Shown: piece by piece, positions 33,788 through 38,460 of the stretch
Layout of the letters: each line of letters starts with the position of its first letter
Numbering within the stretch: the first letter of the stretch is position 1
Program-made: the position numbers and the translations under genes
Assembly (NCBI GenBank): GCA_002343775.1
Contig: DDSH01000022.1
Location: forward strand, 239,746-303,745
Length of the DNA: 64,000 nucleotides
From: Anaerolineales bacterium UBA2395
GTDB lineage: Bacteria; Chloroflexota; Anaerolineae; Anaerolineales; Villigracilaceae
Direction: 5' to 3'
The notes under the pieces: generated by a model
The model's input: the letters and a program-made list of their open reading frames with translations, nothing else
Told to the model about the DNA's origin: nothing
The model's database searches: none

Positions 33788-34591
33788 ATGGAATCGACAA
33801 AAAAACCGGCAGGCTCGCGCAGACGCAAGACCCACGGTGCAAACCCATTCTTCTCGACGGTGGGTATTGCGATCTTGGTGGCGACGCTCTTCACCGCCTG
33901 GACTCCGAACAGCCTGTTCGCCGGCAACTTTCAGGAACAGTTACGCACCCTGCTCACGCCTCAACCCGGACTCGAAACCACGCTCAGCACCTCACAGCCA
34001 CAACTACGCATCGGCATTGTAGCCGGACACATGGGCAATGACTCTGGCGCGGTCTGCACCGACGAAAACGGACAGGTCACGCTGACGGAAGTGGACGTCA
34101 ACCTGGAGATCGCCACGCTGGTACGCGAAAGTCTCACCTCACGCGGCTTTCAAGTGGACCTGCTCAACGAGTTCGACACCCGTCTGAACGGATATCGTGC
34201 GGTGGCGCTGGTTTCCATCCATAACGACTCTTGCGAATACATCAACGACGAAGCGACAGGCTTCAAAGTGGCGGCTTCGCTCGAGACTCGCGACATCAAC
34301 CGTGCGCAACGTCTCACCGCCTGCCTGACCAACCGGTATCAAACGCTGACCGGGCTGACCTTCCACGCCAACAGCATCACGCCAGATATGACCGAGTATC
34401 ACGCCTTTTCTGAAATCGACCCGAACACCATCACTGCCATTATCGAAACGGGTTTTATGTATCTCGACCGTGACATACTAACTGAACGCACCGACCTGAT
34501 CGCCGAAGGTGTAACACAGGGAATTCTGTGTTTCATCAACAATGAAAGCGTTCTCCCGGCAGAGCTTCCGCTCCCGACGATCTTGCCATGA
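33788..34591 (+). CDS. N-acetylmuramoyl-L-alanine amidase (Amidase_3), N-terminally anchored
   Basis: Zn/catalytic residues in AGH, TEVDVN, SIHND and IIETGF. A hydrophobic N-terminal segment is present. Confidence 0.85.
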   Translation: MESTKKPAGSRRRKTHGANPFFSTVGIAILVATLFTAWTPNSLFAGNFQEQLRTLLTPQPGLETTLSTSQPQLRIGIVAGHMGNDSGAVCTDENGQVTLTEVDVNLEIATLVRESLTSRGFQVDLLNEFDTRLNGYRAVALVSIHNDSCEYINDEATGFKVAASLETRDINRAQRLTACLTNRYQTLTGLTFHANSITPDMTEYHAFSEIDPNTITAIIETGFMYLDRDILTERTDLIAEGVTQGILCFINNESVLPAELPLPTILP

Positions 34592-35271
34592 ACAAACGAT
34601 TCGCCCACTCGCGCAATGCTTTCCTCCTGTTTCTGGCAATCATAGGGATGAGCGCCTGCACATCTGGGCAGCCTGTTCCTGTCCTGCCGATGGCGACGCA
34701 GGCACAGCCGTTCGCGGTCGTCCAACTCTCCAAACCGACCTACACCCCGTCTCCCACAATCACCCCATCCCCCACTCAAACTCCCACGCTGACGCCTGAA
34801 CCCATGGCGCAGGCGGAGATCGTTGTGGATACGCCCACAAGCGAGTATGTTGCCCCGGCGCAGAACAATTCTGCTGCTCCCATCGTCTATACGGGAGGAA
34901 AGTACATCCTCGTGGATATTTCCGAGCAGCACATGTATGTGTACGATGGCGAAATGCTTGTGTATAGTTTCGTCGCTTCGACCGGGATGAACAACGCCAC
35001 GCGCGTGGGCAACTTCAGCGTGCTGAACAAGATTCCCAATGCCTACGGCGCAACGTGGAATATTTGGATGCCGAGCTGGCTTGGCATCTATTGGGCAGGC
35101 AGCCTGCAAAACGGAATCCACGCCCTGCCGCTCCTGCCGAATGGCGCCACGTTATGGGCGGGCTATCTCGGCACTCCCATTTCGTATGGCTGCGTGGTGT
35201 TGGGTTCCTACGAAGCGCAGACGCTCTACAACTGGGCAGACGTGGGTACGCCTGTGGATATTCAATGGTAG
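34588..35271 (+). CDS. L,D-transpeptidase (YkuD) lipoprotein
   Basis: Lipobox MSAC, TPT linker, ILVDISEQHMYVY, ASTG and GIH...SYGCVVL. ATGA overlap with the amidase. Confidence 0.88.
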   Translation: MNKRFAHSRNAFLLFLAIIGMSACTSGQPVPVLPMATQAQPFAVVQLSKPTYTPSPTITPSPTQTPTLTPEPMAQAEIVVDTPTSEYVAPAQNNSAAPIVYTGGKYILVDISEQHMYVYDGEMLVYSFVASTGMNNATRVGNFSVLNKIPNAYGATWNIWMPSWLGIYWAGSLQNGIHALPLLPNGATLWAGYLGTPISYGCVVLGSYEAQTLYNWADVGTPVDIQW

Positions 35272-35336
35272 GAATGGGTTCTTTTTGTTTATAATATTTA
35301 TAACAACTTTATCCGTGTTGCTGTGAAAGGTGATCC

Positions 35337-36343: not shown

Positions 36344-37372
36344 ATGAATCGGCTCCAGTTATCCCGAAGAGACTTTTTGAAATTGAGCGGATTGGGCATG
36401 GCGAGTTTGCTCGCGCCTCCGCTCAATTTTGATTTGAGCGACCCGTTCGCCTCCCAACAAGGACGTGTCACCGTCCGCACGGTCTGGCTGTACGACCAGC
36501 CATCCTTCGAAGGCGGCAAAGTCAAGTTGATCCAGCGTGATGCGCTTGTTGACATCACCAACACCGCCGTCAGCGAAGACGCTGAAACGCACAACCGCAT
36601 CTGGTATGAGATCGGTACCGAAGGCTACGCCTATTCGGGCAACATCCAGCCGGTACGCACTGCCCTCAACCCGCCGCAAATGGACATTCCAAAAGACGGT
36701 GTGCTCGCCGAAGTGACCGTCCCGTTCAGCGATGCGCACGAGGAACCAAATACTGAGTCAGCCGTGGGCTATCGGGTGTACTACGAGACCACCCATTGGA
36801 TCAAGTCCACAGTCACGAGCGAAGCGGATGGACAAATCTGGTACCAGATCCTCGACGATAAATGGAACAAGCATTATTTCGTCCGTGCTGAACATTTGCG
36901 CGTGATGACCGCCGAAGAACTCGCCCCCATCTCACCCGATGTACCCGACCGCGAAAAGAAGATCGTCGTGCGACTCGACTCGCAGATCGTCATCGCCTAT
37001 GAAGGCAAGCAGCCTGTTTTCGTCGTTCCAACCGCCACGGGCGGCAGATTGCGCTCCGGCACCTACACCACACCGCAGGGGAATTTCATCACCTACTACA
37101 AACGTCCCTCACGTCACATGGCAGCCGGCGATATCGCCGCCAGCGGCTTCGACCTGCCCGGCGTGCCCTGGGTGCAGTACATCACCAAAAGCGGTATCTC
37201 CTTCCACGGCACGTTCTGGCACAACGACTACGGGCGTCCGCGCTCGCACGGCTGCATCAATCTCACCTCCAGCAGCGCCAAATGGCTCTACCGCTGGACC
37301 TCCCCGAATGTTGCGACCAACAAGGAATTTTCCTACGGCGGCGTGGGTACAAGGGTCGAGATCATCAAGTAA
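36344..37372 (+). CDS. L,D-transpeptidase with twin-arginine (Tat) signal
   Basis: SRRDFLK, IVVRLDSQIVIAYE, TPQG and SFHGTFWHNDYGRPRSHGCINL. Confidence 0.92.
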   Translation: MNRLQLSRRDFLKLSGLGMASLLAPPLNFDLSDPFASQQGRVTVRTVWLYDQPSFEGGKVKLIQRDALVDITNTAVSEDAETHNRIWYEIGTEGYAYSGNIQPVRTALNPPQMDIPKDGVLAEVTVPFSDAHEEPNTESAVGYRVYYETTHWIKSTVTSEADGQIWYQILDDKWNKHYFVRAEHLRVMTAEELAPISPDVPDREKKIVVRLDSQIVIAYEGKQPVFVVPTATGGRLRSGTYTTPQGNFITYYKRPSRHMAAGDIAASGFDLPGVPWVQYITKSGISFHGTFWHNDYGRPRSHGCINLTSSSAKWLYRWTSPNVATNKEFSYGGVGTRVEIIK

Positions 37373-37434
37373 TTCTCTAAACTCCCTCTCAAAATTTATC
37401 GTTAGAATTCGAATATAGGAATCATCCATTAACC

Positions 37435-38460
37435 ATGAGCATTTCCCAACTTTCCCGCCGTGACTTTCTGAAACTGACCGCTTCGGGCGCGCTCGGGCTG
37501 GCTCTCTCCGAATTGGGCATTGACCGCGCCTTAGCCGCTCCCACCACCTCGCAGGGACGCGCCATCTGGAGCGGCGTGCGCGTTTTCGATGCGCCCTCCC
37601 TGCTGGCAAACGAAGTCGACCTCCTGCGCATCGACCAGGTGGTCGATCTCAAAGGCGAAGCGCAAGGCGACAGCATCGACAACAAATTCAACACCACCTG
37701 GTACCAACTGGATGGCGGTTATTACACCTATTCCGGCTGGCTGCAGCCCGTGGAGACGAACTACCAGAAACCGGTCTACGAGATTCCCGCCGAAGGCAAA
37801 CTTGCCGAAGTCAGCGTGCCGTATAGCCTGACCTATCTCGCACCCTATTTCCACGCCAGGAACGCGCATCGCATTTTTTACGAAACCACACACTGGGTTC
37901 AAAAAGTGATCGTCACCCGTGAAGAAAAGACCATCTGGTACGAAATCTACGACAAGGAATACAAGAAATCCTTTTACGTCCCATCTCATAACCTGCGCAT
38001 CATCCCAGATGAGGAGTTGAACCAGCTTTCCCCTGAGATTCCCAATGAGGAAAAACTCATCCATGTGGATATCGAAACTCAAATGGTCACCGCTTTCGAA
38101 GGTCAAAGAATGGTGCTTTCGGTGCGCTGCGCCAGCGGTCAACGAGGAACCGATACCCCCAAGGGCGAATGGTTCACCTACCACAAGGGACCTTCCATCC
38201 ACATGACCAACTTTGGCGATGCCGTCGAAAACATCTACAACCTGCCGGGTGTGCCCTGGGTCTCGTTCTTCACCGGCTCGGGTCATGCTTTCCACGGAAC
38301 CTATTGGCATAACGACTACGGTCGTCCGCGCAGCAACGGCTGTATCAACCTGCCATCGAGCATATCCAAATGGGTCTATCGCTGGACCAGCCCGGTCGTG
38401 CCGCCCAATGAAGATTACCTGCACCAGCCGGGTCAGGGAACCCGGGTTCAGGTCGTTTAA
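37435..38460 (+). CDS. L,D-transpeptidase with twin-arginine (Tat) signal
   Basis: SRRDFLK...ALA, IHVDIETQMVTAFE, TPKG and AFHGTYWHNDYGRPRSNGCINL. Confidence 0.92.
   Translation: MSISQLSRRDFLKLTASGALGLALSELGIDRALAAPTTSQGRAIWSGVRVFDAPSLLANEVDLLRIDQVVDLKGEAQGDSIDNKFNTTWYQLDGGYYTYSGWLQPVETNYQKPVYEIPAEGKLAEVSVPYSLTYLAPYFHARNAHRIFYETTHWVQKVIVTREEKTIWYEIYDKEYKKSFYVPSHNLRIIPDEELNQLSPEIPNEEKLIHVDIETQMVTAFEGQRMVLSVRCASGQRGTDTPKGEWFTYHKGPSIHMTNFGDAVENIYNLPGVPWVSFFTGSGHAFHGTYWHNDYGRPRSNGCINLPSSISKWVYRWTSPVVPPNEDYLHQPGQGTRVQVV

Follow-up and report, generated by a model that had tools for sequence, protein, structure and literature searches.

A conserved amidase and L,D-transpeptidase cluster of Anaerolineales, probably an operon for peptidoglycan remodelling

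Enzymes of the YkuD family, the L,D-transpeptidases (LDTs), serve several purposes in the bacteria from which they have been described. In Escherichia coli, ErfK/YbiS/YcfS (LdtA-C) attach Lpp, YnhG/YcbB make 3-3 links and YafK/DpaA releases Lpp, and in alphaproteobacteria LDTs attach outer-membrane proteins. The amidases AmiA/B/C of E. coli carry an autoinhibitory helix formed by an insert. Here, we compare such systems with a cluster of one Amidase_3 amidase and four YkuD enzymes (LDT1 to LDT4) found in a 64,000-nucleotide stretch of DNA, hereafter the window (C3:239746-303745), from the genome of Anaerolineales bacterium UBA2395 (4.89 Mb, 98.6% complete). The host belongs to the family Villigracilaceae, and its placement in Chloroflexota/Anaerolineae holds. 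Filamentous Anaerolineales, Ca. Villigracilis among them, rank with the most abundant bacteria of wastewater plants, and there has been hardly any work on their envelope; we found no paper on LDTs or on this cluster in Anaerolineae or Villigracilis in the literature searched. Ca. Villigracilis forms very thin filaments in activated sludge, measuring 12-50 x 0.3-0.4 µm (PMC10746286).

We show that the cluster is far beyond chance, because all of its genes are intact and their order is kept in dozens of species. The reading that we favour, and hold to be reasonably likely, is that of a lineage-specific housekeeping peptidoglycan-remodelling operon of Anaerolineales, enlarged by tandem duplication. 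As described in the initial annotation, five co-oriented genes encode an Amidase_3 enzyme and four YkuD enzymes: all five open reading frames are intact, lie on the forward strand and score over the Pfam cut-offs (amidase against PF01520, E = 9e-14, 52.3 bits, cut-off 27; LDT1 to LDT4 against PF03734, 59.5, 91.2, 68.6 and 65.1 bits, cut-off 23.4). The 4-nt ATGA overlap reported between the amidase stop and the LDT1 start is real, and the general interpretation as a unit for envelope or peptidoglycan remodelling likewise stands. Public annotation already names these proteins L,D-transpeptidases. The operon probably comprises seven genes and extends to 39612, two genes beyond the five first noted, and its features are as follows.

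33788-34591, forward strand: membrane-anchored Amidase_3 N-acetylmuramoyl-L-alanine amidase (PF01520)
34588-35271, forward strand: LDT1, short YkuD paralogue (PF03734)
35337-36272, forward strand: LDT2, bitopic YkuD enzyme (PF03734)
36287-36324, forward strand: strong hairpin in the LDT2-LDT3 spacer (RNAfold, -28.7 kcal/mol for the spacer)
36344-37372, forward strand: LDT3, twin-arginine translocation (Tat) signal, two SH3b-like domains and YkuD domain (PF03734, TIGR01409)
37435-38460, forward strand: LDT4, architecture of the LDT3 type (PF03734, TIGR01409)
38558-39136, forward strand: LOR-like (LURP-one-related, tubby/scramblase-type) protein of 192 aa (PF04525, sub-threshold)
39147-39174: perfect hairpin in the spacer between the LOR-like gene and dn2, GTAG...CTAC type of repetitive extragenic palindrome (REP), -22 kcal/mol
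39187-39612, forward strand: acidic 141-aa protein "dn2", last gene of the unit, without a Pfam or NCBIfam family
39614-39650, forward strand: intrinsic terminator, 14-bp GC-rich hairpin running into a T tract (RNAfold, -25.4 kcal/mol)

One line of evidence for this reading is the conservation of the cluster. The amidase orthologue was recovered in 38 of 41 relatives and in 16 of 17 sampled genera, each genus representing a separate family of Anaerolineales. Across 301 evenly sampled Chloroflexota genomes, it occurred in all sampled Anaerolineales and in five of the six genomes from the remaining orders of the class; beyond the class we found only distant Amidase_3 proteins (at most 39% identical, mostly E 1e-11 to 1e-21). 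LDT2 adjoins the amidase in nearly all Anaerolineales loci examined. An LDT lies beside the amidase in one of five genomes of the other orders, and none was found beside the distant Amidase_3 genes in the six regions examined outside the class. Within the genus the gene order is amidase, LDT1, LDT2, LDT3, LDT4, LOR-like protein and 141-aa protein; among the 54 species representatives with enough flanking DNA, this exact seven-gene order was present in 37, and another eight lacked only LDT1. In other families of the order the unit reads amidase, LDT2, sometimes LDT3, sometimes the LOR-like gene, and then the 141-aa protein, and LDT1 and LDT4 appear at the family level only. Rather than being scattered in relatives, the genes are therefore clustered, with a core retained across the sampled families of the order. 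This pattern suggests that an amidase-LDT2 pair came first and was enlarged to the five-gene form at the level of the family. The ancestral unit would have consisted of the amidase, LDT2, possibly one Tat-SH3b LDT, and the 141-aa protein, and in Villigracilaceae it would have grown by tandem duplication, with LDT1 arising from LDT2 and LDT4 from LDT3.

Spacing and terminators are consistent with a single transcription unit. The spacers along the seven genes measure -4, 65, 71, 62, 97 and 50 nt, and no hairpin with a clean T-run behind it occurs inside the unit. A hairpin followed by a T-run also lies 3' of the 141-aa gene in three other species, with different stem sequences; a structure kept in the same place while its stem changes is the pattern expected of a functional terminator. 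We infer from this arrangement that the seven genes are co-transcribed. At the LDT2-LDT3 and LOR-dn2 junctions, relatives have unrelated hairpins; both hairpins of the window are perfect, lack a clean T-run and look like REP-type insertions; the one between LDT2 and LDT3 is probably a REP-like element or one involved in mRNA processing or stability. A promoter scan found seven candidates compared with a mean of 4.6 in shuffled sequence, which is not above expectation, and a search of Rfam returned no RNA family in the window.

The amidase has a simple architecture, namely a single N-terminal transmembrane segment (approximately residues 17-39) and a catalytic domain only. A whole-genome profile search showed that it is the sole Amidase_3 of the host genome, present in single copy. 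Across 14 orthologues, H81, E101, H145 and E220 do not vary, and neither do four cysteines. From the alignment with CwlV and CwlD and from the known features of the family, we take H81, E101 and H145 to be the zinc ligands (His/Glu/His) and E220 to be the catalytic residue. The closest solved relatives are 4rn7, CwlV (1jwq) and CwlD (7rag), which align end to end without a large insert; the amidase therefore resembles the types that lack an autoinhibitory helix. Orthology with CwlD itself was considered and rejected, as the TIGR02883 equivalog model scores 27.9 bits against a cut-off of 221.55.

LDT2 consists of a basic cytoplasmic tail of about 40 residues, one transmembrane helix (residues 40-69), a long Pro/Thr linker and a catalytic domain with the motif HGTYWH...SHGCVNL. 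Its catalytic block is almost invariant across the order (GPGYYLP.VPY.MYFY.GYG.HGTYWHNNFGTPMSHGCVN). In LDT2 orthologues of other Anaerolineales families (loci L019, L023-L025 and L028-L030), a TPR-like cytoplasmic head of approximately 60-120 residues precedes the transmembrane helix, a head that the genus of the host has lost, only the basic tail being left in Villigracilis. We take LDT2 to be the ancestral partner of the amidase. LDT1 combines an N-terminal signal or lipobox with a Pro/Thr linker and a divergent active site, IHA...SYGCVVL. It has the same N-terminus as LDT2, an overall identity of 33-35% with it, and a 60-nt linker segment at 78% nucleotide identity; a gene-order comparison of the fetched regions confines LDT1 to the family. 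It is thus best explained as a family-level duplicate of LDT2. Relative to the SHGChN motif, LDT1 shows His replaced by Tyr, Asn replaced by Val and a longer His-to-Cys spacing in all orthologues, and the SYGCVVL motif and the His are kept in all seven that were compared.

The initial annotation had assigned three export or anchor modes to the four LDTs, and this assignment was only partly borne out. The Tat signals of LDT3 and LDT4 and the transmembrane anchor of LDT2 stand. The lipoprotein mode of LDT1 is not conserved: its GMSAC sequence fits the lipobox pattern, but the Cys is present in two of the seven orthologues, those of the window and one other species, and is Trp in the five others, so that the claim of three modes is partly species-specific. 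The host genome yields four Lgt hits and two TatC genes.

LDT3 and LDT4 both carry SRRDFLK and score 17.4 and 20.8 bits, respectively, against the TIGR01409 Tat signal (cut-off 16.7); they can be classed as predicted Tat-exported proteins. Among 32 homologues, conservation of the Tat motif reaches at least 90%, and (S/T)RRDFLK is found in all eight paralogues of the LDT3/LDT4 type in the host genome. The two proteins are 43% identical, and the closest paralogue of LDT4 lies on contig C24 (62% identity). LDT3 has the motif SHGCINL; LDT4 has SNGCINL in the window and three close species and SHGC in its other orthologues. An SH3_3 match on LDT3 remained below the cut-off (E = 0.0022, 18.6 bits, cut-off 27), and some close homologues carry a precomputed PF08239 hit. 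In the AlphaFold model of LDT3, residues 45-230 are all-beta (pLDDT ~80-90), and Foldseek matched the N-terminus to the SH3b-bearing Psm endolysin 4krt, BT_1314 (4r0k) and YrvJ (9a7d), with low global TM scores, and the C-terminus to LdtMt2 and Ldtfm.

Using the active-site pattern H-x(14-17+)-[S/T]-x-G-C, we found the catalytic His and Cys in LDT1 to LDT4 and in all ten YkuD paralogues of the genome. Six of the ten have His in front of Gly-Cys, and Tyr, Asn, Lys and Arg occur there once each; among LDT1 to LDT4, the full SHGC(V/I)N motif is confined to LDT2 and LDT3, with SYGCVV in LDT1 and SNGCIN in LDT4. A copy number of ten, within a range of 2-10 across the order, is comparable with E. 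coli (six) and Mycobacterium tuberculosis (five). Six of the YkuD genes lie outside the cluster, including a second, three-gene array on C24. There (C24:11888-18558), three Tat-SH3b-like-YkuD paralogues are interleaved with a Peptidase_C39_2+TPR protein, a DsbA-like thioredoxin, a DsbD/CcdA-type membrane protein and a rhodanese lipoprotein, and this extracytoplasmic thiol-redox system could keep the catalytic Cys of LDTs reduced.

The last two genes of the unit encode proteins of a different kind. The LOR-like protein matches PF04525 just under threshold (E = 1.7e-4, 21.7 bits, cut-off 24.5), has no signal peptide, transmembrane or other hydrophobic segment, and has no relative in the Protein Data Bank (PDB) detectable by sequence; its gene follows LDT4 in most family-level loci. 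For the 141-aa protein, Pfam and NCBIfam gave no family even when E values up to 10 were admitted, and its structure model (pLDDT 64) had no PDB fold match (best E 0.88). Its 5330 homologues are all unnamed "hypothetical" proteins from Anaerolineales or Chloroflexi; a JGI label, "YlbF-like", on one of them is backed by no hit here. It is more conserved than the enzymes (75-89% within the genus) and occurs in 28 of 28 Anaerolineales and in three of six genomes from other orders of class Anaerolineae; all matches listed (31 of the 301 Chloroflexota genomes) fall within the class. The amidase orthologue has a similar phyletic range, and the 141-aa gene lies within ~6 kb of the amidase in 20 of the 28 Anaerolineales genomes. 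Linkage is the sole evidence tying the 141-aa protein to the enzymes. A far-reaching extension of our reading, which we consider very unlikely, would make the seven-gene unit a trans-envelope module special to Anaerolineae, in which the cytoplasmic 141-aa protein, joined by the LOR-like protein in Villigracilaceae, acts on the exported enzymes as a dedicated chaperone or proofreader of Tat substrates or, alternatively, by binding the cytoplasmic head of LDT2, TPR-like in its ancestral form, and in which LDTs, not penicillin-binding proteins (PBPs), make most cross-links in the thin filaments. A Tat chaperone should track LDT3, yet the gene follows LDT2 alone in three loci, and that role is not supported.

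Upstream of the amidase, the genes at 31916-32722 and 32751-33770 were considered as members of the unit and rejected, as they are conserved within the genus only and 0.4-1.8 kb is often inserted before the amidase. The second of them encodes a 339-aa protein without a Pfam or NCBIfam hit, genus-conserved just upstream of the amidase, in which a D...D-I-K stretch is, by eye only, reminiscent of PD-(D/E)xK nucleases. Downstream, the stretch at ~39700-41000 looks like an insertion, because in relatives the 141-aa gene directly precedes the gene at 41002-41796; it contains a 140-aa membrane protein, a small lipoprotein and a nucleotidyltransferase pair.

Absence of peptidoglycan synthesis is ruled out by Ddl, MurB, MurG, FtsW, MraY, Mur ligases and PBPs: a dcw gene cluster holds Ddl, MurB, MurC-type ligases, MurG, FtsW, MraY and FtsI, and the genome totals five Mur-ligase domains and 5-7 PBP transpeptidase domains. 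The mur genes, whose presence the initial annotation had proposed to confirm, thus belong to a full peptidoglycan pathway. MurE (C26:64697-66286) has EDPR, with the Arg kept, where enzymes adding diaminopimelic acid (DAP) have DNPR, which is compatible with a DAP-type wall and not decisive. On the reading that we favour, the amidase would strip stem peptides from glycan strands, most plausibly at the septa of the thin filaments, and the LDTs would act on tetrapeptide stems through their Cys and His, forming 3-3 cross-links, exchanging the terminal residue or trimming it. LDT2, borne on a long Pro/Thr stalk, would sit at the membrane, as would LDT1; LDT3 and LDT4 would leave the cell in folded form by way of Tat and attach to the wall with their two SH3b-like domains. 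Family membership and the closest solved relatives suggest the 3-3 cross-linking chemistry, and the seven products may be functionally coupled.

Several observations weigh against this interpretation. To our knowledge, the reaction specificity of YkuD enzymes cannot be read from sequence, and cross-linking by LDT1 and LDT4 is in doubt because of their deviation before Gly-Cys. Confidence in the YkuD domain of the modelled LDT3 is only moderate (pLDDT ~35-80). No Peptidase_S11 (PBP5-type DD-carboxypeptidase) was found in the genome to supply tetrapeptide donors, S11 being the only family searched for this purpose. The hairpin between LDT2 and LDT3 is followed by a merely T-rich stretch, and weak or partial termination is possible there. 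Finally, the 141-aa gene is unlinked to the amidase in about 8 of the 28 Anaerolineales genomes, and the linkage of the LOR-like and 141-aa genes may be inherited synteny and not a matter of function.

An uncoordinated origin would account for part of the pattern: the cluster might be a redundant array of tandem paralogues, kept by local duplication in a stable core neighbourhood near nusA. LDT1/LDT2 and LDT3/LDT4 are indeed duplicates, LDT1 or LDT4 is missing from some genomes, the amidase orthologue is usually without a neighbouring LDT outside the order, and both the YkuD genes elsewhere in the genome and the variable copy number across the order fit such redundancy. Duplication cannot explain the adjacency of the amidase and LDT2, however, because the two enzyme families are unrelated, and this adjacency is kept in nearly all Anaerolineales loci examined, in which nusA and other flanking genes are no longer neighbours. 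The tight spacing, the one conserved terminal terminator and the retention of paralogue-specific peculiarities, e.g., SYGCVVL in all LDT1 orthologues, also argue for coordination, and we regard the uncoordinated array as unlikely, if not negligibly so. A mixed set, in which LDT1 and LDT4 are hydrolases (L,D-carboxypeptidase, endopeptidase or DpaA-like amidase) working in turnover with the amidase while LDT2 and LDT3 cross-link, would be in keeping with the altered active site of LDT1 in all of its orthologues, with the variable residue before Gly-Cys in four of the ten paralogues, and with the existence of YkuD-fold hydrolases such as E. coli DpaA/LdtF. We know of no sequence signature that separates YkuD hydrolases from transpeptidases, and within the genus some LDT4 orthologues have SNGC and others SHGC, which speaks against a fixed change of function in LDT4; such a division seems to us quite unlikely.

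The initial annotation had also suggested that the array could tether an S-layer or sheath to the wall, and we found no positive evidence for this. In its general form, protein anchoring would mean that at least one LDT links an envelope protein (of an S-layer or sheath, or a lipoprotein) covalently to the diamino acid in peptidoglycan. The different tethers of the four paralogues point to a division of labour, the neighbours of the active-site residues are altered in LDT1 (SYGC) and LDT4 (SNGC), and the envelope of Chloroflexota is layered and little understood (PMC13319060; bioRxiv 10.1101/2025.08.19.671072), all of which would speak for this idea. Against this, neither the cluster nor its surroundings showed a candidate substrate gene, although we did not look for one in a dedicated or systematic search; the neighbours that are conserved encode two cytoplasmic proteins, and relatives lack the stretch that holds the small lipoprotein at 40161-40382. 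Among solved structures, those nearest to the LDTs belong to cross-linking enzymes of the Gram-positive type. The host genome further encodes five sortase domains, and these make LDT anchoring less necessary. Sortases are the usual monoderm route for covalent anchoring. Taken together, we judge anchoring by these LDTs to be highly unlikely. Three of the sortase domains (C18:74280-74681, C16:151816-152223 and C4:132002-132406) lie in open frames of 2950, 4054 and 1582 aa, respectively, which may be fusions to giant surface proteins or mere long stop-free frames.

The favoured interpretation, a housekeeping operon for peptidoglycan remodelling, gives the cluster the value of useful context and not of a surprise, since its enzymes are ordinary. 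The conserved pairing of the sole Amidase_3 with membrane-tethered and Tat-exported LDTs nevertheless offers a concrete and cheap entry to the wall chemistry of the class. Among described systems, LdtMt2 (Rv2518c, with four paralogues in M. tuberculosis) and Ldtfm of Enterococcus faecium, both solved 3-3 cross-linkers, are the top sequence and fold matches of the LDTs, at an identity of ~13-24%. They share the YkuD domain with His...(S/T)HGC-h-N, as in SHGCVNL of LDT2 and SHGCINL of LDT3, and, like the LDTs here, are tethered to the membrane at the N-terminus, carry non-catalytic beta domains ahead of the catalytic one and form a multi-paralogue family per genome. The accessory domains differ, being two SH3b-like domains here, Ig-like domains in LdtMt2 and an N-domain of its own in Ldtfm, and neither system has the Tat signal of LDT3 and LDT4 or a conserved operon with an amidase. 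E. coli LdtA-F have the same fold and Cys/His chemistry and set a precedent for paralogues split into cross-linkers, protein anchorers and a hydrolase. The NCBIfam models of the LdtE/ErfK type match only weakly here (~20 bits against equivalog cut-offs of 480-583), and Asn, not Arg, follows the Cys and hydrophobic residue. Unlike E. coli, the host is presumably a monoderm, and we came across no gene for an Lpp-like substrate, although none was searched for systematically.

The amidase finds its nearest counterparts in CwlD of Bacillus subtilis and Clostridioides difficile (7rag) and the catalytic domain of CwlV (1jwq), which likewise follow a minimal plan of transmembrane anchor and Amidase_3 domain, and none of the three has a large insert of the AmiA/B/C type. 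CwlD differs in that the protein described here scores below its equivalog cut-off and that the four invariant cysteines are specific to the present clade; the host, moreover, is not known to sporulate. AmiC2 of Nostoc punctiforme (5emi), a septal amidase of a filamentous multicellular bacterium, is also an Amidase_3 enzyme without an inhibitory helix from a filament former, and is a relative detectable by sequence, aligning in the first half only. AmiC2 has AMIN targeting domains, whereas the amidase here has none, and a septal or nanopore role for the latter would be pure analogy. All enzymes of the cluster thus belong to well-known families, and what is new beside these systems is the order-wide pairing of the amidase with LDT2, the Tat-2×SH3b-like-YkuD family and, as the most novel part, the co-conserved and class-restricted 141-aa protein.

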